Shown in pieces: positions 4,842 through 40,117 of a stretch of 64,000 bases of DNA; within the stretch, counting starts at the first letter, position 1; each line of letters starts with the position of its first letter. Under the pieces are notes generated by a model. It worked only from the letters and a program-made list of their open reading frames with translations, made no database searches and was not told the DNA's origin. Source of the stretch: Clostridia bacterium (GTDB lineage: Bacteria > Bacillota > Clostridia > TANB77 > CAG-508); contig CAAECB010000080.1 in NCBI GenBank assembly GCA_900754285.1, forward strand, positions 1,797-65,796. The letters run 5' to 3'. Both the position numbers and the translations under genes were made by a program.

Positions 4842-6281
4842 TTAATCTTGATTTTCTGTAACACTTTGTACATACTTATTACATAATTCAAAAAATTTCA
4901 TTCCATTAGATGCTTTAAACAAAATGACATCTCCTGATTTAGTATTATCAATCAAATACTTTAATATTTCGCTTTTATCTTCAAAATAAATAATTTGTTT
5001 TTGGTTGTCTACATTATTTTTATTTGCCTCTTCAGCAATAAATTTAGCATTTTCACCACTACATACTAAAACATCAACATTACTATCTGACACTGCTTTA
5101 CCTATTTTTGTATGCATTTCTTCTGCAAAATTACCTAATTCAAAAACATCTCCTAAGACCGCTATTTTTCTGTGTTCCTTATATCCATCTAATGAGCTTA
5201 ATGATGCTTTTATTGATTCGTAACTAGCATTATATGCATCATTAATAACTGTAATATCATCTTTTAATTTTTTGACTTCCATTCTTTTTTCAGTCAAAGC
5301 AAATGTTTCTATTCCATTTTTTATTTTTTCTTTTTCTATCCCTAATAAAATTCCTACAAGAGTTGCACATAATGAATTATAAATAAAATGTATTCCTCCA
5401 ACTGGTACATTTACAAAAAATGTTTCCTCTTTTCCTTCTTTTATAAAATGACAAACAAATTCACTTGCATTTTCTTTTAACTTGATATCACTTGCCCAAA
5501 CATCACTTTTATTTTCTATTCCAAAAGAATGAATTTTTAAAATTTTATTTTCAAGATTTTTGTTATGCCATTCATTAAGTTTATCATTATCCTCATTTAT
5601 AATTATTTCTTTATTTTTCATACCATCTAATATTTCTAATTTTGCTTTTAAAATATTATCTCTTGAACCTAAATTTCCTATATGTGATGTTCCTATATTT
5701 GTTATAATTGCTATGTCTGGCTTTGCAATATTAGTAAGTAAGTCTATCTCTCCAAAGTGATTCATTCCCATTTCAACTACTGCAACTTCTTGATCTATTA
5801 AATGTAATAAAGTTAATGGCAATCCTATATGATTATTATAATTTCCCATTGTTTTTAATGTTTTATATTTTTGTGCTACTACATTTGCTACCATATCTTT
5901 TGTACTCGTTTTTCCAACACTTCCTGTTATTGCTATAACTTTTAAATCTTTTCCATACAAATTTCTTTTATATGCAGCTATTTTTTGCAATGCTTCTAAA
6001 CTATTTTCTACTACAATAATTGTTCTGTCTGGCCATTTTTGCAATAACTTCACATCTATTTTTATATTGTTTATAATAACAATTTTTCCATTCTTTTTAA
6101 ATGCTTCTTCCCAGTATTCACTTCCATCTATTGTGTCTGCTTTTAATCCTATATATACATCATTTTCATTCATTCTTCTAGTATCATATGCAAACTCTCC
6201 ACAAACTGCTTCTTTGTCTCCTTGTAAAAGTATTCCTCCTGTTATTTCTAAAATGTCTTTAACTTTTAATTCTTTATTCAT
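4842..6281 (-). CDS. murF: UDP-N-acetylmuramoyl-tripeptide--D-alanyl-D-alanine ligase
   Basis: 479 aa. Mur-ligase P-loop ITGSVGKTSTKDM, DAYNASYES motif, overall MurF architecture. Confidence 0.9.
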   Translation of the reverse strand: MNKELKVKDILEITGGILLQGDKEAVCGEFAYDTRRMNENDVYIGLKADTIDGSEYWEEAFKKNGKIVIINNIKIDVKLLQKWPDRTIIVVENSLEALQKIAAYKRNLYGKDLKVIAITGSVGKTSTKDMVANVVAQKYKTLKTMGNYNNHIGLPLTLLHLIDQEVAVVEMGMNHFGEIDLLTNIAKPDIAIITNIGTSHIGNLGSRDNILKAKLEILDGMKNKEIIINEDNDKLNEWHNKNLENKILKIHSFGIENKSDVWASDIKLKENASEFVCHFIKEGKEETFFVNVPVGGIHFIYNSLCATLVGILLGIEKEKIKNGIETFALTEKRMEVKKLKDDITVINDAYNASYESIKASLSSLDGYKEHRKIAVLGDVFELGNFAEEMHTKIGKAVSDSNVDVLVCSGENAKFIAEEANKNNVDNQKQIIYFEDKSEILKYLIDNTKSGDVILFKASNGMKFFELCNKYVQSVTENQD

Positions 6282-23748: not shown

Positions 23749-23880
23749 GGTAAGGTCTTAATCTCTCTATAGAGAGCACTCCACACAAAAGTATCTACTT
23801 ATTGCTGCTTCCTTCCGGATCTGACAAGGTTCATAGGCTCCTGTCGGATTACTCTCTATACAAAGATTAAATCCTTTACC
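23749..23880 (-). ncRNA. ffs: signal recognition particle RNA (small/4.5S-like), approximate ends
   Basis: Minus strand reads ..CCUUGUCAGAUCCGGAAGGAAGCAGCAAUAAG.., the conserved domain IV. 5' GGUAAAGG.. pairs with 3' ..CCUUACC. Canonical position upstream of dnaX. Confidence 0.75.
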
Positions 23881-25893: not shown

Positions 25894-26238
25894 TTATTGT
25901 TCCAAATTCGTTCTACTTCTAAGCTCATGCCAATTTACTCCTGATATATATTTTATGCTTTCTGATGACAATAATTTATTTTTCTTTGCATATTTATTCC
26001 ATTCCTGTATTGTTGGAAATTTTTCTTTTTTTCTTGTTATCTCTTTCAAACATTTTATAGACTCTTCATACTTTAAATATACAAAATTATCTTTTGGATA
26101 TTGCACTTCTTTTTTATAATATTCATTTAATACTTCATCAAAACGTTTACTTACTTTCTTTGTTTCTTTTGAATTTAATCCATACTTTTCTACAATTGCA
26201 TCTAGTTTATTTCTTATTCTCTTTAATCTTTCTTTCAT
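25894..26238 (-). CDS. Spo0E-like aspartyl-phosphate phosphatase domain fused to a C-terminal domain of unknown function
   Basis: N-terminus LKRIRNKLDAIVEKYGLNSKETKKVSKRFDEVLNEYY resembles the Spo0E/YnzD family helix-hairpin (..SQELDxLIxxY). RBS acggagag. Extended -10 tgatataat upstream. Confidence 0.5.
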   Translation of the reverse strand: MKERLKRIRNKLDAIVEKYGLNSKETKKVSKRFDEVLNEYYKKEVQYPKDNFVYLKYEESIKCLKEITRKKEKFPTIQEWNKYAKKNKLLSSESIKYISGVNWHELRSRTNLEQ

Positions 26239-26368
26239 CTTTTCTCTCCGTCTTTTGTTTTTTTCATATTATATCATACTATTTATATAAAGATGCGTAG
26301 TGTAAAGCTGTATTAGTAAATTTTATGTCGAAATATGTTGTAAATTATACTTTTAGTTTGAATTTTTA

Positions 26369-26930: not shown

Positions 26931-27118
26931 GCAAAAAATTGCCTAATTTCAGCCAATTTTTGACCTTTTAAAATCAATTTTAAGCTATTTTATTTTTTAT
27001 TTAATGTAGTTATATACCTTGGTTTTTCGGTATTTTTGATAATTTTATAGTTAATGACAAAATTCGACAACATTTTCATTTTTTATGTGATATAGTGTGA
27101 AAAAAAGGAGGTATTTAT

Positions 27119-27421
27119 ATGCGACATTTACATATTATAAGTAATGAAAATATTAAAGAATATGAAACATTATTAGAACTTTACAAAAATAAGGACTTCT
27201 CAACTGTTAGAAATGAAAAAGAAAAGGAAATTGAAGAAGATATTCTTAAAGAACTTATACAGCAAAAGCCTATAATTGGTAAACTTTTGGCAAATGACAC
27301 AACTAATTATTTATCAAGATTAAATGAAATGGATTCAACAATTGAAGGATTTCCTACTTTAATTAACACTATGCAAAATTATCTTCAAACTAATATTACT
27401 ATAATTAAAGAAGCAAAATAA
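27119..27421 (+). CDS. hypothetical moron protein
   Basis: ORF track. Strong RBS aaaggaggt 8 nt upstream. TTCGACAACATT motif at 27063-27074 in its promoter region. Confidence 0.5.
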   Translation: MRHLHIISNENIKEYETLLELYKNKDFSTVRNEKEKEIEEDILKELIQQKPIIGKLLANDTTNYLSRLNEMDSTIEGFPTLINTMQNYLQTNITIIKEAK

Positions 27422-34450: not shown

Positions 34451-37318
34451 TTACCCTCCTACTAATGCTTCTATATCTTTTCCTGTTCTTCTTGCTCTGT
34501 CTCTTAAATCTTCTAATAAAATTTGTCCTAGTTTTTGATTTCCTACGTTTACCGTTAAATATATTGGTCTATCATTGTTACTTCCACTATAATTAGATAA
34601 TACATCTTCAAATGTATCTCTCATTATATTCTGTGGTGTAACAATTTCTGGGTTCGTTTTAGCTCCTGAATATTCACCAGCTAATACTGTTGTCGCTTCT
34701 GTTAGAACTCCACCTTTTGCTAGTCTTGGTAATGTTACACTTGGTATCAAATTTATATTAAATCCAAAAGTTTTTCCTCCTAATCCAGGTACCCAGTCTG
34801 GAATATCAAATTTTAATCTATTTAATGTTTTTATAACTGCATTAACGCCCTTTACAATTCCATTTGCCATTCCTTCTATTCCACCTAAAATAGAATTTAT
34901 AATGTTTTTGATTGTATTCCATATACCATTAAATATATTTGTTACTATTGTCTTAAGTCCTGTCCAAATAGTATTCCATATTGTTTTAATTCCATTTAAT
35001 ACATTTAATATTGTATTTTTTATTCCATTTATAACATTTGATATTGTACTTTTTATAGCATTCCATACTGTTGAAATCACACTTTTTATTCCATTCCAAA
35101 TATTACTAAAGAATGTTGCTATTGCATTAAATACTGTTTTCACTATGTTTAATATTCCATTCCACAAATTACTTAAGAAATCTTTAATTCCATTCCATAC
35201 TGTATTTATTTTGTCCATAATACTATTCCATAGATTAATAAAAAATTCCTTAATCCCATTCCATACATTCTTTATAGTATCACATATTTTTTGCCACAAA
35301 TTTTTGAAGAACTCTGCTATTTTGTTCCATATTTCTTCTGCTTTTTGTTTTATCCAATCCCATGTATCTTTTATAGCTTTTGTTACAGTATCCCAATTCA
35401 TTATAGCTACTACAATTAACGCTATAACAGCAATAATTGCTACAATAATAGCAACTAACCAGCCTATACTAATTCCAAATGCTGTCGATACTGCCGTTGC
35501 TATTGGCATAACAGCATTATAAATTGCCATAGCAGTGTTATAAATACTTATTGCTATAGCAATAACTTTTATTGCAACTGCAATGCCTAATAAAAATTCA
35601 GCAACTATTGGATTTTCAACAAACCATTTAAATATATCTACTAATCCATTTAATATATCTAGAGCAATTGTTCCTATATTCTGTCCTATATTAGATAAAG
35701 CATCTATTAATGGTTGCCAATCTATTTCTGCTATTTTTTCTGATATTCCTCTGAATTTGTCTGAACAATTGTTTAACCAATTTTGAAAACCTTCGCTTTT
35801 TACTACATTATTTATTGCTGTTAATAAATTATTAAATGCATTTGCCAAGTTCTGTACTATTGCATCTCCATTACCATTATGATTCCAAGCATTTGAAAAT
35901 GATTCTGCTATGTTCCCTATAATTGCTAAAATTAATTCTAATGATTTATATACAGTTCCGTTTGTAATTATCTTTTCAAAGCTTCCCCATACTGATGATA
36001 TTAAACCTCCAACTTGCCCTGCTGTTACCTTTATTTGTTCCACCAAATCAGGTCCATACTTATTCCAACTATCAACAAGAGGCTTAAAGAAATCATATAA
36101 TTTTTGTGCTAATGTTGACATTTGATTATCTATTCCAGATAAATCAATGCTTGGTGATGCACCACCACCATTTCCACTATCAGAACTATCATTAGATTGT
36201 ACATTATTAATTTCATCATGTATACCCGCTAACTGTTTCGTTTCATTTTTTGTCTTTTTTGCACTTCCAGCCATATCTGAATAAGACTTTGCACTTGCTT
36301 TTGCAAATATGTTTACTTTGAATAGTGCGTAAACAACAGATTGTATAGCTTTCATTAATTGATATACTAAGTTAGTTACATATTGAATTACAGGAGCAAA
36401 TGCTGAACCCATCGCATATTTCATATAATCAATATTCGCACTTAATTGTTTAGCACCAGCATTTTGGCTTGATAACCATTTACTAGCACAACCACTTAAA
36501 GCACTATAAATACCTTGCAACGAAAAAAGTGCACCAGCATATTTTAAAATATGTCCTAGTCCACTTTTAAATCTAACACCAATACCTTTTATATGATTAT
36601 TAATATTTTGTGTTACTTTTGAAAATTTTTGTCCTATTGCTGGTAACTTACTAAAAATATCTTTTATTTTAGAAATACCTGGTTTTGCTTGTTCTATTTT
36701 TTGTTTAAATCCTCCCAAAAAACTACTCAATTTATTTTGAGTAGTTGATGTTTTTGAAGTTTGTTGTTCTAGTTCTGCCATTTTGGATTTTGCACTATTT
36801 AACAATGCATTATATTTTTCAATTTCATTATTCAATTTATCACTTTGCTTAACTAAACTTTGATAATTTGTATTATTATCTAATTTTTTATATGTTTCTT
36901 GCTTTATTTGTTTATTTCCAGCTTCTGGCATTTCTTTTATTACTGATTGATTTGTATCATATCTTATTTTGTCTAATGCATTATTTGTAACATCTAACTT
37001 TAATTGTCGACTAGTTATTTTCTTTTGTAGACTATCTATTTCTTTTTCTATTTGTGTAATTTGTTTCTGTGCATCTTTATTATTTACTTTTATTGCAATT
37101 TCACTATTTTCTGAACTTTTTTTGAAATCTTCCATCTTCTTTTTCATAAAATTAACTGCTTGATGTAACTTGTTTGTCATTGCTTTTGTATCCACTTTTG
37201 AAAAAGCATCTTGTGCTTGTTTCATTGATTGTTTTATTGCTGGTATTATCTTTTGAAATTCTTTCAATGCTTCTTCTACTTTTGCAGTTACAATTATTTC
37301 TATTTCTTCTACTTTCAT
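34451..37318 (-). CDS. tape measure protein (start at M12, RBS aaaggagga)
   Basis: ~955 aa. N-terminal coiled coils, central TM cluster, C-terminal run of ~11-aa W/F repeats (NLWNGI, NIWNGIK, TVWNAIK..). Confidence 0.85.
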   Translation of the reverse strand: MKVEEIEIIVTAKVEEALKEFQKIIPAIKQSMKQAQDAFSKVDTKAMTNKLHQAVNFMKKKMEDFKKSSENSEIAIKVNNKDAQKQITQIEKEIDSLQKKITSRQLKLDVTNNALDKIRYDTNQSVIKEMPEAGNKQIKQETYKKLDNNTNYQSLVKQSDKLNNEIEKYNALLNSAKSKMAELEQQTSKTSTTQNKLSSFLGGFKQKIEQAKPGISKIKDIFSKLPAIGQKFSKVTQNINNHIKGIGVRFKSGLGHILKYAGALFSLQGIYSALSGCASKWLSSQNAGAKQLSANIDYMKYAMGSAFAPVIQYVTNLVYQLMKAIQSVVYALFKVNIFAKASAKSYSDMAGSAKKTKNETKQLAGIHDEINNVQSNDSSDSGNGGGASPSIDLSGIDNQMSTLAQKLYDFFKPLVDSWNKYGPDLVEQIKVTAGQVGGLISSVWGSFEKIITNGTVYKSLELILAIIGNIAESFSNAWNHNGNGDAIVQNLANAFNNLLTAINNVVKSEGFQNWLNNCSDKFRGISEKIAEIDWQPLIDALSNIGQNIGTIALDILNGLVDIFKWFVENPIVAEFLLGIAVAIKVIAIAISIYNTAMAIYNAVMPIATAVSTAFGISIGWLVAIIVAIIAVIALIVVAIMNWDTVTKAIKDTWDWIKQKAEEIWNKIAEFFKNLWQKICDTIKNVWNGIKEFFINLWNSIMDKINTVWNGIKDFLSNLWNGILNIVKTVFNAIATFFSNIWNGIKSVISTVWNAIKSTISNVINGIKNTILNVLNGIKTIWNTIWTGLKTIVTNIFNGIWNTIKNIINSILGGIEGMANGIVKGVNAVIKTLNRLKFDIPDWVPGLGGKTFGFNINLIPSVTLPRLAKGGVLTEATTVLAGEYSGAKTNPEIVTPQNIMRDTFEDVLSNYSGSNNDRPIYLTVNVGNQKLGQILLEDLRDRARRTGKDIEALVGG

Positions 37319-37352
37319 TATTATCCTCCTTTCTTTTTTTATATTTAACATA

Positions 37353-37380
37353 ATAAAAAAACACCTACTCTATGTAAGTG
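37353..37380 (-). terminator. rho-independent terminator closing the nuclease cassette
   Basis: Minus strand cacttac-ataga-gtaggtg (one G-U) followed by ttttttt. Overlaps the stop codon at 37370. Confidence 0.7.
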
Positions 37381-38329
37381 TCTTCGTTTTATTCTTTTCT
37401 ATCATATTTTGTAATGTATCTCTGTCCCATAATATTATTCCTGTGACTTTAGCAAGTTTTTGAGCATTATATGTAAATTTACTATTAGTTAATACAACTG
37501 CAATATTGCAACCATAATAATCTTTGCCAGACATAGCTTCTTGAATAGCATCATTTCCAACTTTTCCATTATACCTTTTACATTGTATTGCATATTTTAC
37601 TTTATCTTTTTCTGCAATAATATCTATTCCATAGTCTATGCTTTTGGGTGTATTTATAACATTTTCATATCCATTAAATCTTAATAATTTAACACAAAAT
37701 TCTTCAAATTCAAATCCATCAAGATTATCTATTAATCTAAAATCGCATTTATTTATAAAATCTATTTTTTCTTTTTCTGATTTTATTTTACTATTTAGAA
37801 TTTCTAGTTCTTTTTGTAATTTTTCTTTTTCTTTTTTTAAAGTATTATTTTTATTTGATAATATGTCAAATGTCCTTTCTTCTCCTTTTATTGCTCTATT
37901 GATAATGTCTTCGTGTTCAGTAATTTGTTCTAATCTATTCTTTTTATCTTCTAATTTTATTATTTCTACACGAATTTTATTTTTATTTTTAATTAGTTGA
38001 TTAATATTTTCTTGGTATTTACTAATTAGACTAAGAATTTCTTGGTTATTATTTATATATTTCTTAATTTCTTCTTTGTTTACTTCTAAATCTCTAATCT
38101 CAAATTCTAGTCTTTCTTTAATTTTATGTAATTTAATAATTTCTTTTATTATTGGTTTTCCAAGAATTTGGACTACAACTTTTCTTTCCCATAAAAAACA
38201 TATAGTAAAAATTATGAAGAAAAATAAAAAAATTGGGAAACTATTATTTATAAAGAGTGTACTTATTAATAAATTTAACAATCCCAATAATAAAACTAAT
38301 TTTTCTTTTGTATTATGATTATTCTTCAA
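37370..38329 (-). CDS. membrane-anchored coiled-coil protein with C-terminal Mrr-type (PD-(D/E)xK) restriction-endonuclease domain
   Basis: Two N-terminal TM helices (LVLLLGLLNLLISTLF, IFLFFFIIFTICFLW), ~150 aa of K/E-rich heptads, then FEEFCVKLL..GYENV..SIDYGIDIIAEKD..KYAIQCKRY, the Mrr_cat D..D..QxK pattern. Confidence 0.7.
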   Translation of the reverse strand: MKNNHNTKEKLVLLLGLLNLLISTLFINNSFPIFLFFFIIFTICFLWERKVVVQILGKPIIKEIIKLHKIKERLEFEIRDLEVNKEEIKKYINNNQEILSLISKYQENINQLIKNKNKIRVEIIKLEDKKNRLEQITEHEDIINRAIKGEERTFDILSNKNNTLKKEKEKLQKELEILNSKIKSEKEKIDFINKCDFRLIDNLDGFEFEEFCVKLLRFNGYENVINTPKSIDYGIDIIAEKDKVKYAIQCKRYNGKVGNDAIQEAMSGKDYYGCNIAVVLTNSKFTYNAQKLAKVTGIILWDRDTLQNMIEKNKTKTLT

Positions 38330-38344
38330 TTCATCAACTCCATT

Positions 38345-38635
38345 TTATCTATATACTATTAATGTTCTTATTAAAAAAGCACTACCCATTGATTGAAACA
38401 TAGTATTGTCTATTTTTATATCTATAATTTCATATCCATTTGATTGCATTTTTTCAATTATATTATTAATTTGAATAGTATACTTATTTTCACACTCTAA
38501 TCCGTTTGTTGTTGATTTTGACATTGTATTAAGCATTATTATGTGCTTTTTTCCATCTTTTTGCTTAAGATATTTTTCTATATTTTTATATAAATTTTCA
38601 GTAGAATTTTCATACCCTTTATCAAATAATCCCAT
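38345..38635 (-). CDS. small hypothetical protein, first gene of the nuclease cassette
   Basis: 96 aa. RBS atggaggtt. 15-nt gap to the nuclease gene. No family recognised. Confidence 0.5.
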   Translation of the reverse strand: MGLFDKGYENSTENLYKNIEKYLKQKDGKKHIIMLNTMSKSTTNGLECENKYTIQINNIIEKMQSNGYEIIDIKIDNTMFQSMGSAFLIRTLIVYR

Positions 38636-38667
38636 ATTAAAACCTCCATTTCATTTATTATAAATAA

Positions 38668-38711
38668 ATTATAGCACTTTCAATTATGCTTTTTTGTCGA
38701 ATGTTGTCGAA
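38668..38711 (-). promoter_or_regulatory. cassette promoter with tandem TTGTCGAA boxes
   Basis: Minus strand TGcTATAAT (TATAAT = 38673-38668). Upstream, plus-strand TTGTCGAA at 38694-38701 and 38704-38711 (10-bp period). Confidence 0.55.
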
Positions 38712-38723
38712 AATAATATTTTT

Positions 38724-39050
38724 TTAATTTTTTTCTGATTTCATTATTCCTCTCATTCTTCTTATAATTTCTTCTGGAGACTGTATTTGCTGTTCTTCCT
38801 CATTAAATAGCTCTTTGTAGTTATCTCTAATCAGTATTATTTTTGGATTCTTACTCATACTATCTGCTCTTATAAGTTTATTTGTTACCGCTTCTTGTAA
38901 GTTAATTTCACGTTTTAAGTCATCTATTATTTTTATTAGATGAGATTGACAGTACACATTTATTTCTAAATATCTACTATTCCAAAACTCATATGGTTTC
39001 ATATCAAAATAATAAGCTAATCTTTCCATTGAATATATCAATTCAATCAA
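38724..39050 (-). CDS. tail assembly chaperone-like (T-part position); its frame stays open upstream, -1 relative to the preceding gene
   Basis: Position between the G-like gene and the tape measure. The -1 frame is open across the stop of 39086-39547. Confidence 0.45.
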   Translation of the reverse strand: MIELIYSMERLAYYFDMKPYEFWNSRYLEINVYCQSHLIKIIDDLKREINLQEAVTNKLIRADSMSKNPKIILIRDNYKELFNEEEQQIQSPEEIIRRMRGIMKSEKN

Positions 39051-39085: not shown

Positions 39086-39547
39086 TTAAGCCTCGTAGCC
39101 TTGAAATCCTTGTTCTTGGAATTGTTTCTCTGCTATTTTGCTCATTGCACTTTCTGCTGATTTTTGAACTAATTCGTTCATATTCATTGTTGATAAAGGA
39201 TTTGAGGTCATTTCTTTTAATTCTTTCTTGCTCATTTTCTTTTTGAAAAAACCCTCTTCATTCAATGCCTCTGCAATCTTAGCATATAATTCACTTATAG
39301 TTATTCCTTCTGCTCTACAATCATCTATAAAATCATATACTTCATCTGATGAATTAAATGCACTTTCTCCATTCTCGTTTTCTGCTAACTTAAATATTAT
39401 TTTTGTTAAAGCTTCTCCATCTAATATTGAATATGCTTTTACAAATGCTTCTTCAAAGTTTTTGTTTTTTAGTAGATTAGCTATATCTACTATTTTTCTT
39501 GTTTTTAGTACTAAATTAATATTTTTATTTTTTGTTTCTATTATCAT
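39086..39547 (-). CDS. tail assembly chaperone (G-like)
   Basis: 153 aa, acidic. Sits directly after the major tail protein. Confidence 0.5.
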   Translation of the reverse strand: MIIETKNKNINLVLKTRKIVDIANLLKNKNFEEAFVKAYSILDGEALTKIIFKLAENENGESAFNSSDEVYDFIDDCRAEGITISELYAKIAEALNEEGFFKKKMSKKELKEMTSNPLSTMNMNELVQKSAESAMSKIAEKQFQEQGFQGYEA

Positions 39548-39652
39548 TTTATTTCTCTCCTTTGCAAAAGAGAGAAGGCCTAAGCCTCCTCAGTATTTTC
39601 TTCTATTGTGCTAGTAATTTTCTTTGTTCTACTCCTAGCACTTAATGTAGAA

Positions 39653-40117
39653 CTATTCTGTGGGAAAGCCTTTGCTTTCTTGTATTTCTGAACTTCTATA
39701 GATTGTTAATTTTGTTTTTAACATATCATCTAGAGCAATTTCACTCATTCCTACAAAGCATGTTCCTGTGAAATACCATGTAATTGGTTTTCCAGATTCT
39801 GATGCTGTACTTTCTGGTAGTTGTATTGCCCAATATCCATTTGTTTTGGCTGTTTGCACAGCTTTTAATTCATCATATTGATCTTCTTTAAATAATATTT
39901 CTATTTCTAAATTTTCTGCTTTTTGTCTTCCTTCTGCCATTCTTTCATCAGGAATATCTAAAGCACTATATGTAACCCCTTCTGGAGCCTTTAGAAACTC
40001 TGGTATACTTTGTACAAAAGCAATTTGCTTTCTTTTTGATGCTGATTTTAAATCTTCTAATGTATCAGCATGAAATAATTTAGTCATTGTACTTGTTTTT
40101 GGTTCTGACATCTTCAA
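39653..40117 (-). CDS. major tail protein
   Basis: 154 aa. Called from position and size in the siphovirus tail module. Confidence 0.6.
   Translation of the reverse strand: MKMSEPKTSTMTKLFHADTLEDLKSASKRKQIAFVQSIPEFLKAPEGVTYSALDIPDERMAEGRQKAENLEIEILFKEDQYDELKAVQTAKTNGYWAIQLPESTASESGKPITWYFTGTCFVGMSEIALDDMLKTKLTIYRSSEIQESKGFPTE

Follow-up and report, generated by a model that had tools for sequence, protein, structure and literature searches.

What are two genes doing in the tail module of a prophage, between the assembly chaperones and the tape measure gene, and do they act together? We addressed this question in the window, by which we mean the whole stretch of 64,000 nucleotides analyzed from contig CAAECB010000080.1 of a Clostridia bacterium. 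Positions 37350-38713 on its - strand form an insert with two open reading frames (ORFs), here called gene 1 and gene 2, an extended -10 element and a strong predicted terminator. With a probability that we put at roughly 0.55, we read this insert as a moron (an accessory unit of a phage genome) composed of two independent genes, of which gene 2 would encode a membrane-held nuclease defending the lysogen, with a promoter linked to Spo0A. The coordinates of the features discussed here are collected in Table 1.

The guanine-plus-cytosine (GC) content of the insert is 20% as compared to 28-31% in its flanks, and such a divergent base composition is one of the marks of a moron. When the window was compared by blastn with four relatives (loci L029, L012, L001 and L037), the slot between the chaperone and tape measure genes was found to hold extra DNA that differs among related phages, with sharp breakpoints. 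L029 is collinear with the window through the stop codon of gene 1 (38344) at 76% identity, has 36 bp in place of gene 2, and is homologous again from 37333. L012 is collinear to 38663, just past the -10 element, carries a bPH_3/SHOCT gene instead of gene 1, and regains homology at 38314 in gene 2. Bajarodcaudo virus 4 (L001) follows the window to 38713, continues with 2.3 kb of other small genes and matches again at 37333, while L037 follows it to 38838, has a DUF4352 gene and then gene 1 without gene 2, and resumes at 37392, from the terminator on. Clean breakpoints are located at 38713/38663, 38343/38314 and 37392/37333. The ORF layout, the drop in GC content and these breakpoints confirm the position between tail chaperones and tape measure that an earlier reading of the letters alone, the first-pass annotation, had proposed, and both genes were found on the - strand at the coordinates it gave. 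Sequence elements for a promoter and a terminator of its own are also present and are conserved across loci. Judged by its breakpoints and base composition the insert is a moron in the chaperone/tape-measure slot, an accessory unit with predicted signals of its own.

The first-pass annotation had further treated the two genes as a cassette that functions as a unit, and here our results disagreed with it. L029 retains gene 1 with gene 2 precisely missing, gene 1 is swapped for another gene in L012, and of the 42 IMG/VR loci that carry a relative of gene 1, 40 lack any gene 2 relative within 4 kb; the two loci that hold both are near-identical to the window. At the loci inspected, most of the other gene 1 relatives were flanked by repressor/ImmA genes on one side and a tyrosine or serine recombinase on the other, or came after a tape measure gene, and those of Lactobacillus prophage Lj928 and Lactococcus phage bIL312 are similarly placed. 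The gene 1 protein gave no matches in Pfam, NCBIfam or PADLOC. Its model has a beta-alpha-beta-beta fold for which a search of PDB and BFVD returned nothing significant, the weak matches being dodecin/DUF74-like and 'Cse60' (E>0.007). The resemblance to phage proteins annotated as 'sporulation protein Cse60' (E 0.013-0.1) is without sequence support. We also considered whether gene 1 might be a homologue of the bPH/SHOCT partner that replaces it in L012, and rejected this since the two have no similarity. On the sequence comparisons, the two genes are best described as a stack of independent accessory genes ('morons') and no obligate pair. As a side observation, gene 1 homologues adjoin tail-anchored membrane proteins at 3693-3992 of L002 (Lj928 Ljo_1460) and at 4343-4858 of L004 (phiFN37 CDS0118), and these Lactobacillus and Fusobacterium neighbours share the N-terminal motif ...ART.G...INP.YGKKG.G...NPKK..YNKVY...

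Gene 2 starts 15 nt past gene 1, and the gap contains neither a promoter nor a terminator. Amino acids (aa) 200-310 of its product match the complete Mrr_cat domain (PF04471, positions 1-115 of 115) with an E-value of 1.4e-30 and a score of 106 bits, the cut-off being 21, and Mrr_cat_2 and NA-iREase1 are the other Pfam matches of this nuclease core. The motif DYGIDIIAEKD...AIQCKRY was found as the first-pass annotation had quoted it. In an alignment of 31 homologues (32-94% identity), E209, D232, G234, I235, D236, Q249, C250 and K251 are invariant, and the invariance of the catalytic residues argues for gene 2 being an active nuclease. An AlphaFold2 model built on the 31 homologues had an overall predicted local distance difference test score (pLDDT) of 88. 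It consists of hydrophobic helices at 5-25 and 31-47 joined by a 3-residue loop, an uninterrupted helix at 49-193, and an alpha/beta nuclease fold. C44 in the hairpin region is invariant, and G16, L20, F34, L35, F37 and R49 are almost invariant. The long helix of ~145 residues carries the conserved patch NRAIxxEExTFxILS and shows weak matches to coiled-coil segments of SMC, RecN and Rad50; it is likely to form a coiled-coil stalk. In a Foldseek comparison of the alpha/beta domain with the PDB, AF1548, AspBHI, MspJI and the nuclease domain of Avs4 matched best and Can2 was aligned as well, with AF1548 being the sole PDB match at the sequence level. The Pfam, AlphaFold2 and Foldseek results thus bear out the arrangement of two transmembrane (TM) helices, a long helix and a C-terminal Mrr_cat core described in the first pass. 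Lysine and arginine residues occur on both sides of the hairpin, and by the positive-inside rule the long helix and the nuclease would therefore be placed in the cytoplasm.

Beyond the nuclease core, no Pfam domain scored above its cut-off in gene 2, and a leucine-zipper (HALZ) match in the helix stayed under it. Among Pfam families, Mrr_N, SRA, winged-helix and other DNA-recognition or sensor domains were not detected, nor was a holin. We considered whether the TM segments and stalk form a module common to other effectors. A search with the N-terminal 200 residues against 1.84 billion representatives returned 11 proteins, all of family length (289-334 aa) or fragments, and Mrr_cat was shown in two only of them (P0003 and P0023). 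The idea of a common module was rejected on this account, and because of the same result the stalk appears to be specific to a small family. One copy of gene 2 that is otherwise 99.6-100% identical (L122/L202, IMGVR_UViG_3300045988_165307, at ~4546 of L202) is interrupted near residue 80, where a 1-nt difference divides it into two frames, and represents either a pseudogene or an assembly error.

Where gene 2 relatives occur bears on what they do. Full-length relatives (44-99% identity) were found in related siphoviruses at several positions, some in the same chaperone/tape-measure slot and some 3' of the tape measure gene, adjoining Ltp, TM2 or Bro-N morons. A branch with 31% identity lies directly after a helix-turn-helix (HTH) repressor and an ImmA-type peptidase in the lysogeny module, co-oriented with the repressor. 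In reference genomes there were two full-length matches, from metagenome-assembled genomes of an uncultured Clostridium and a Clostridiaceae. Proteins with bPH_3 or DUF4429 plus SHOCT domains are encoded upstream of gene 2 homologues in five lineages and are their commonest upstream neighbour; PH domains are the membrane-targeting N-termini of some homologues of the SNIPE defence protein (bioRxiv 10.1101/2025.11.03.685801). An 82-100-aa zinc-ribbon membrane protein adjoins gene 2 relatives in three lineages and two different genome contexts, its gene being upstream in L243 and L246 and downstream in L026. In L024 only a truncated SHOCT gene lies upstream, and the gene 2 relative has its own promoter. 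We rejected a role of gene 2 as a tail or virion part since it has no counterpart in the collinear relatives L029, L001 and L037 and is present in lysogeny modules. Rather than being uniformly virion or tail components, the outcome that the first-pass annotation had named as speaking against its proposal, the homologues are found in lysogeny modules and several moron slots. Their presence in several such slots and behind repressor and ImmA genes points to a defence or exclusion role expressed in the lysogen and not to a part of the virion.

The wider class has a similar distribution. Most of the ~36 distinct Mrr_cat relatives in IMG/VR have 1-3 predicted N-terminal TM segments, and some of these also bear a zinc ribbon or a TM2 domain. 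At the six Mrr_cat loci inspected, the gene adjoins HTH or ImmA-type genes, with an integrase usually downstream. As far as domain predictions go, Firmicutes phages commonly carry membrane-anchored Mrr_cat proteins in their lysogeny modules. Positions 2906-7582 of L132 encode, in order, ImmA, a Zn-ribbon-TM2-Mrr_cat protein, a DUF3862/BLIP lipoprotein, SLATT_1/DUF4231, a ThsB-type TIR protein and an integrase, so that the Mrr_cat gene is two genes away from the SLATT_1 and ThsB_TIR genes. By its predicted gene content this lysogeny module is a small, compact defence cluster in a gut phage.

We then analyzed the signals that bound the insert. The elements at 38704-38711 and 38694-38701 that had been recorded in the first pass as TTGTCGAA boxes are two perfect Spo0A 0A boxes. 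Counted from the extended -10, they are located at roughly -50 and -40, and they lie 59-76 nt 5' of the gene 1 ATG. The 8-mer of the box occurs 5 times in the window as against 0.62 expected, and the 7-mer 8 times as against 1.6; none of 100 shuffles reached 5 or 8, respectively. The core 0A box TGTCGAA is bound by Spo0A in Bacillus and Clostridioides (PMC3485338), and a pair of such boxes with 3 bp between them was footprinted as a Spo0A site at a phage promoter (PMC2731898). The candidate promoter P2 is the extended -10 element, and TGnTATAMT is kept at an equal distance from the boxes in L005-L011, L012 and L121. In the alternative, sigma-A-like promoter P1, the first 0A box doubles as the -35 and the second lies in the spacer; the P1 position reads TTGACA-16-TACAAT in L008 and L011. 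At the spoIIG promoter of B. subtilis, a 22-bp spacer is overlapped by 0A boxes. A generic sigma-70 scan was not above chance in this AT-rich window (42 promoter-like matches, 52.7 expected), and the promoter therefore rests on conservation across loci and not on the scan. The extended -10 element proposed in the first pass is present as TGcTATAAT and is conserved, while the generic scan lends it no support.

The same arrangement was found in front of other cargo. Tandem boxes occur upstream of other genes in L012, L024 (three promoters), L037, L060 and L203/L204, and in several loci unrelated cargo is preceded by two or three direct TTCGACA repeats (10-bp period) and then TGnTATAMT. Behind these promoters are gene 1 homologues (L203, L204, L024), the Mrr gene of L024, DUF4352 proteins, a bPH/SHOCT gene and, in L060, a TM protein that is probably that locus's Mrr relative. 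The boxes are probably a tandem Spo0A site, and because of this we would expect expression of the unit to be tied to stationary phase or the onset of sporulation. The first-pass claim that the unit is expressed independently of late transcription needs qualifying, since the Spo0A boxes would tie the unit to the growth phase or sporulation of the host. Two further genes of the prophage lie behind 0A-box-like repeats and an extended -10, namely a gene for a Spo0E-like phosphatase at 25894-26238 (- strand; PF09388, 1.7e-7) with repeats at 26326-26342 (- strand), and a 100-aa ORF without matches at 27119-27421 (+ strand) with repeats at 27053-27099 (+ strand). Both genes lie at the end of the prophage that carries the lysin. 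Under the control of Spo0A boxes, a Spo0E made by the prophage could act back on the host's decision to sporulate.

The downstream boundary is a predicted intrinsic terminator, as the first pass had proposed. Its 12-pair stem folds at -12.7 kcal/mol (z=-4.4), and none of 200 shuffles folded as well. The 5' arm codes for the final residues of gene 2 (...TLT*), and gene 2 homologues likewise have ...TLT there. The terminator module CACTTAC...GTAGGTG-T(n) also ends other cassettes, in L029, L033, L037, L012 and L018. Together with the common promoter, the recurring terminator looks like a reusable boundary sequence for the exchange of cassettes.

Table 1. Features of the insert and its flanks, followed by recurring features of other loci (window coordinates unless a locus is named)
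Feature	Position	Strand	Basis or remark
Tail assembly chaperone pair, upstream flank	39086-39547 and 38724-39050	-	Relatives collinear up to 38713/38663
Two perfect 0A boxes in tandem, 3 bp apart (putative Spo0A site)	38694..38711	-	TGTCGAA on + strand, TTCGACA on - strand
Alternative sigma-A-like promoter P1, TCGACA-16-CATAAT	38683..38710	-	10/12 matches
Candidate promoter P2, extended -10 TGcTATAAT	38668..38676	-	Sequence
Gene 1 ribosome-binding site GGAGG	38643..38647	-	Sequence
Gene 1, 96-aa soluble protein, phrog_17572	38345..38635	-	E=3.7e-23, full length
Gene 2, putative membrane-anchored Mrr-type nuclease, 319 aa	37370..38329	-	TTG start, GGAG 9 nt upstream
Predicted TM hairpin, two hydrophobic helices with 3-residue loop, gene 2 aa 11-47	38189..38299	-	Model, conservation
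Long helix, gene 2 aa 49-193	37751..38185	-	Model, pLDDT above 90
Mrr_cat PD-(D/E)xK catalytic domain, gene 2 aa 200-310	37400..37732	-	Pfam, conserved residues, fold
Intrinsic terminator, 12-pair stem and U tract	37350..37385	-	Stem 37385-37357; scan, RNA fold
Tape measure gene, downstream flank	34451..37318	-	966-aa ORF as listed (start 37351)
bPH_3/DUF4429 plus SHOCT genes	L012 4414-4983; L021 3450-3956; L018 3495-3977; L041 5399-5965; L244 1988-2473		
Zn-ribbon/TM/Zn-ribbon family (MKCPKCGS...YWLIIGWW...CQNCGYSWKV)	L243 2246-2494; L246 2183-2431; L026 5075-5377		
Terminator copies	L029 4292-4318; L033 4297-4325; L037 4290-4316; L012 ~5945-5960; L018 ~4900-4915		

The reading that we favor would run as follows. 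The unit would have been shuffled horizontally into the chaperone/tape-measure hot spot of a temperate siphovirus. The gene 2 nuclease would be held at the cytoplasmic face of the membrane by the N-terminal hairpin and the ~145-residue helix, which probably also dimerises the protein, and would most likely cut the DNA of phages, or DNA of other foreign origin, as it arrives, at the membrane or close to it, thereby shielding the lysogen. Tethering would keep the nuclease off the chromosome, a logic shown experimentally for SNIPE, with an architecture as reported for Epona. Gene 1 would be a small soluble protein, usually alone near prophage integrases, that here merely shares the promoter and terminator. 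Transcription would start from the promoter with the tandem Spo0A site, the unit probably being switched by phosphorylated Spo0A (Spo0A~P) at stationary phase or entry into sporulation, and in lytic growth the unit would also be read through as a part of the tail operon. In this scheme we infer nuclease activity, topology, defence function and site of action for gene 2, and Spo0A binding for the promoter.

Several observations weigh against this reading. The genes lie within the late operon and hence are transcribed in lytic growth too. The extended stalk is estimated at ~22 nm (145 residues x 1.5 A), which gives no obvious separation of the nuclease from the nucleoid, and gene 2 has no detectable DNA-recognition or sensor domain with which to discriminate self from non-self. 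PDC-S02 is a PADLOC candidate system that gene 2 matches in part, and the one representative tested was not among the candidates found protective against T4, T5 or T7 (PMC12881386). Moreover, relatives of gene 1 and gene 2 do occur together in three lineages, namely the window, L042 and L024. In L042 the order is kept but the pair has diverged (identities of 42% for gene 1 and 40% for gene 2), and in L024 a gene 1-like ORF lies just 3' of the Mrr gene, i.e., in reverse order, with its own promoter.

Among the alternatives, we consider it unlikely, though by no means far-fetched, that gene 2 is an abortive-infection effector, a tethered and inactive nuclease that is released or activated by membrane damage (injection or holin action), degrades host and phage DNA, and kills the cell. 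Mrr_cat is known as an effector domain from Avs/NLR-like and Lamassu systems, the closest PADLOC matches of gene 2 include nuclease parts of LmuA, LmuB and ZorD, and the layout of two TM helices plus an effector resembles that of holin-like and SLATT effectors, a SLATT gene being two genes from a TM-Mrr relative in L132. However, no conserved sensor or NTPase partner was found, and the architecture fits SNIPE, which is a direct-defence system.

A more far-reaching proposal, which we regard as quite unlikely, is that Gram-positive spore-formers have in the TM-stalk-Mrr protein an injection-site nuclease of the SNIPE type, placed by the prophage under Spo0A control and with the small upstream genes as adaptors. 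The nuclease would then guard the membrane, perhaps the sporulation septum, at the time of commitment to sporulation, and would close the window in which DNA of other phages gets trapped in spores. Gene 1, the bPH/SHOCT proteins and the Zn-ribbon-TM proteins would be exchangeable adaptors choosing the phages that are recognised.

It is improbable, in our estimate, that the two genes form an obligate system in which gene 1 is the partner of the nuclease, be it a sensor, an inhibitor/antitoxin or an adaptor. The 15-nt gap free of internal signals, the diverged pair of L042 and the ORF directly downstream of the Mrr gene in L024 would fit such a partnership. Consistent co-occurrence, on the other hand, was not found, the genes being together in the three lineages only. 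Gene 1 is kept in L029, where gene 2 is precisely absent, and the 40 gene 1 loci described above lack an Mrr relative within 4 kb. Elsewhere the gene before gene 2 is of the bPH/DUF4429-SHOCT or Zn-ribbon-TM type, or there is none and gene 2 has a promoter to itself; gene 1 has no similarity to the bPH partner.

We find it very hard to credit a lytic-cycle role for the phage itself, such as late degradation of host DNA or an aid to lysis, with expression as part of the tail operon. The genes are inside the late operon in the same orientation, which makes read-through unavoidable, and the TM part of Epona has been described as holin-like. Yet a conserved promoter and a conserved terminator are predicted for the unit itself, relatives sit in lysogeny modules co-oriented with the repressor, and close phage relatives lack the unit. 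Least probable of all is a classical Type IV (modification-dependent) Mrr restriction enzyme that is incidentally membrane-bound, for Mrr_cat is indeed the catalytic domain of Mrr and gene 2 has structural matches to the modification-dependent AspBHI and MspJI and a weak PADLOC match to mREase_IV, but the AspBHI and MspJI matches are limited to the catalytic core and, in place of the N-terminal DNA-binding or reader domain (Mrr_N, SRA, winged helix) of an E. coli-type enzyme, which we did not detect, gene 2 has a TM hairpin and a helix.

The surroundings of the insert are those of a prophage of ~38 kb. Its integrase (62351-63526) adjoins tRNA-Arg(CCT) at 63614-63689 (- strand), its HTH repressor is encoded at 61523-61828, and a 14-nt repeat, TTTCTATTGCATTA, occurs at both prophage ends (63540 and 25372) and is a candidate core of the attachment (att) site. 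The phage appears to be a temperate siphovirus integrated beside tRNA-Arg in a low-GC spore-former, the nature of the host being suggested by the Spo0E-like gene and the 0A boxes of the prophage. The ORF at 39086-39547 gave weak Phage_TAC_12 and phrog_183 matches, under Pfam's cut-off. The ATG at 37318 is preceded by AGGAGG, and homology with the relatives restarts at 37333; because of these two observations the true start of the tape measure gene is likely to be this ATG and not the listed 37351. A GC-rich, terminator-like hairpin at 39572-39591 (- strand) lies between the ORF at 39653-40117, presumed to encode the major tail protein, and the chaperone genes, and may attenuate transcription into the downstream tail genes. 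A signal recognition particle (SRP) RNA is encoded in the host flank at 23765-23860.

This analysis mainly adds the modular build of the slot, the wide occurrence of TM-anchored Mrr_cat proteins in lysogeny modules, and the reading of the boxes as a tandem Spo0A site. Sharply bounded modules of promoter, gene and terminator are a clear case of accessory-gene shuffling among phages, and the tandem Spo0A boxes before accessory genes suggest that conversion genes of Clostridia prophages are wired into the sporulation decision of the host. Spo0A-regulated phage promoters, such as A2c of phi29 and Nf, are a precedent (PMC2731898), since they too have tandem 0A boxes 3 bp apart in a spore-forming host. 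In phi29, a virulent phage, however, the boxes serve to repress early lytic promoters, whereas in the window they stand in front of accessory genes and the phage is temperate.

With respect to gene 2, the first-pass view that this is not a described defence system could not be maintained, as Epona, SNIPE and HK97 gp15 are precedents. Gene 2 probably belongs to a type of anti-phage defence that was described recently. The gp15 moron of HK97 confers superinfection exclusion, has its own promoter and terminator, and lies between the tail chaperone and tape measure genes (PMC3594210). It shares with gene 2 the slot and, by prediction for gene 2, a membrane location, but gp15 is small, has no nuclease domain, and blocks DNA entry rather than cutting DNA. 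In PADLOC the gene 2 nuclease was matched best by the C-terminal, Mrr-like part of ZorD (positions 917-1066 of the 1071 in the profile, E=1.6e-22), and LmuA, LmuB and, weakly, mREase_IV were also matched. In Zorya a membrane complex recruits the nuclease ZorD to injection sites, and ZorA bears a long coiled-coil tail. Type I Zorya is, however, a four-protein motor system (ZorA-D) whose ZorD has an SNF2 helicase, whereas gene 2 is a single polypeptide with tail genes as neighbours; having neither an SNF2 helicase nor zorABC neighbours, and matching only the last 150 profile positions, gene 2 was not assigned to ZorD. PDC-S02 gave partial matches (1e-15, 2e-10 and 2e-6) that cover the nuclease and a part of the helix, about half of the models. 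Identity with it was likewise rejected, since the TM hairpin is unmatched and PDC-S02 is an unvalidated candidate.

The two closest likenesses are Epona and SNIPE. Epona is an anti-phage cassette of the sedentary chromosomal integron of Vibrio cholerae (bioRxiv 10.1101/2024.07.02.601686), a single protein with Mrr_cat and two TM helices whose anti-phage activity has been validated, and gene 2 is predicted to have the same make-up. We compared the two by description only; the membrane part of Epona is described as a holin domain, without mention of a long helix. Epona comes from the integron of a Gram-negative host and showed activity in E. coli only; gene 2 resides in a prophage of a probable low-GC spore-former. 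SNIPE, with a TM segment, DUF4041 and a GIY-YIG nuclease, cleaves phage DNA during injection; its membrane tethering averts self-cleavage, and it cuts the DNA of lambda, a siphovirus, at injection and associates with tape measure proteins (bioRxiv 10.1101/2025.11.03.685801). Like SNIPE, gene 2 would have an N-terminal membrane anchor, an elongated middle and a C-terminal cytoplasmic nuclease, its topology being deduced from the lysine and arginine residues. SNIPE is probably the DUF4041 system of Vassallo et al. 2022 (PMC9519451). Gene 2 is not a member of SNIPE, as it has neither a GIY-YIG domain nor a DUF4041 match at E<=0.1 in Pfam. The GIY-YIG nuclease of SNIPE (T5orf172-type) and the PD-(D/E)xK nuclease of gene 2 have unrelated folds, and SNIPE has one TM helix as against two and acts in the Gram-negative inner membrane with ManYZ. 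To date, SNIPE in E. coli is the case in which a membrane-held nuclease has been shown to cut entering DNA. If our reading is correct, temperate phages of gut Firmicutes would widely carry membrane-held nucleases, and defence by spatial sequestration would reach Gram-positive spore-formers and use a second nuclease fold that is unrelated to the first.

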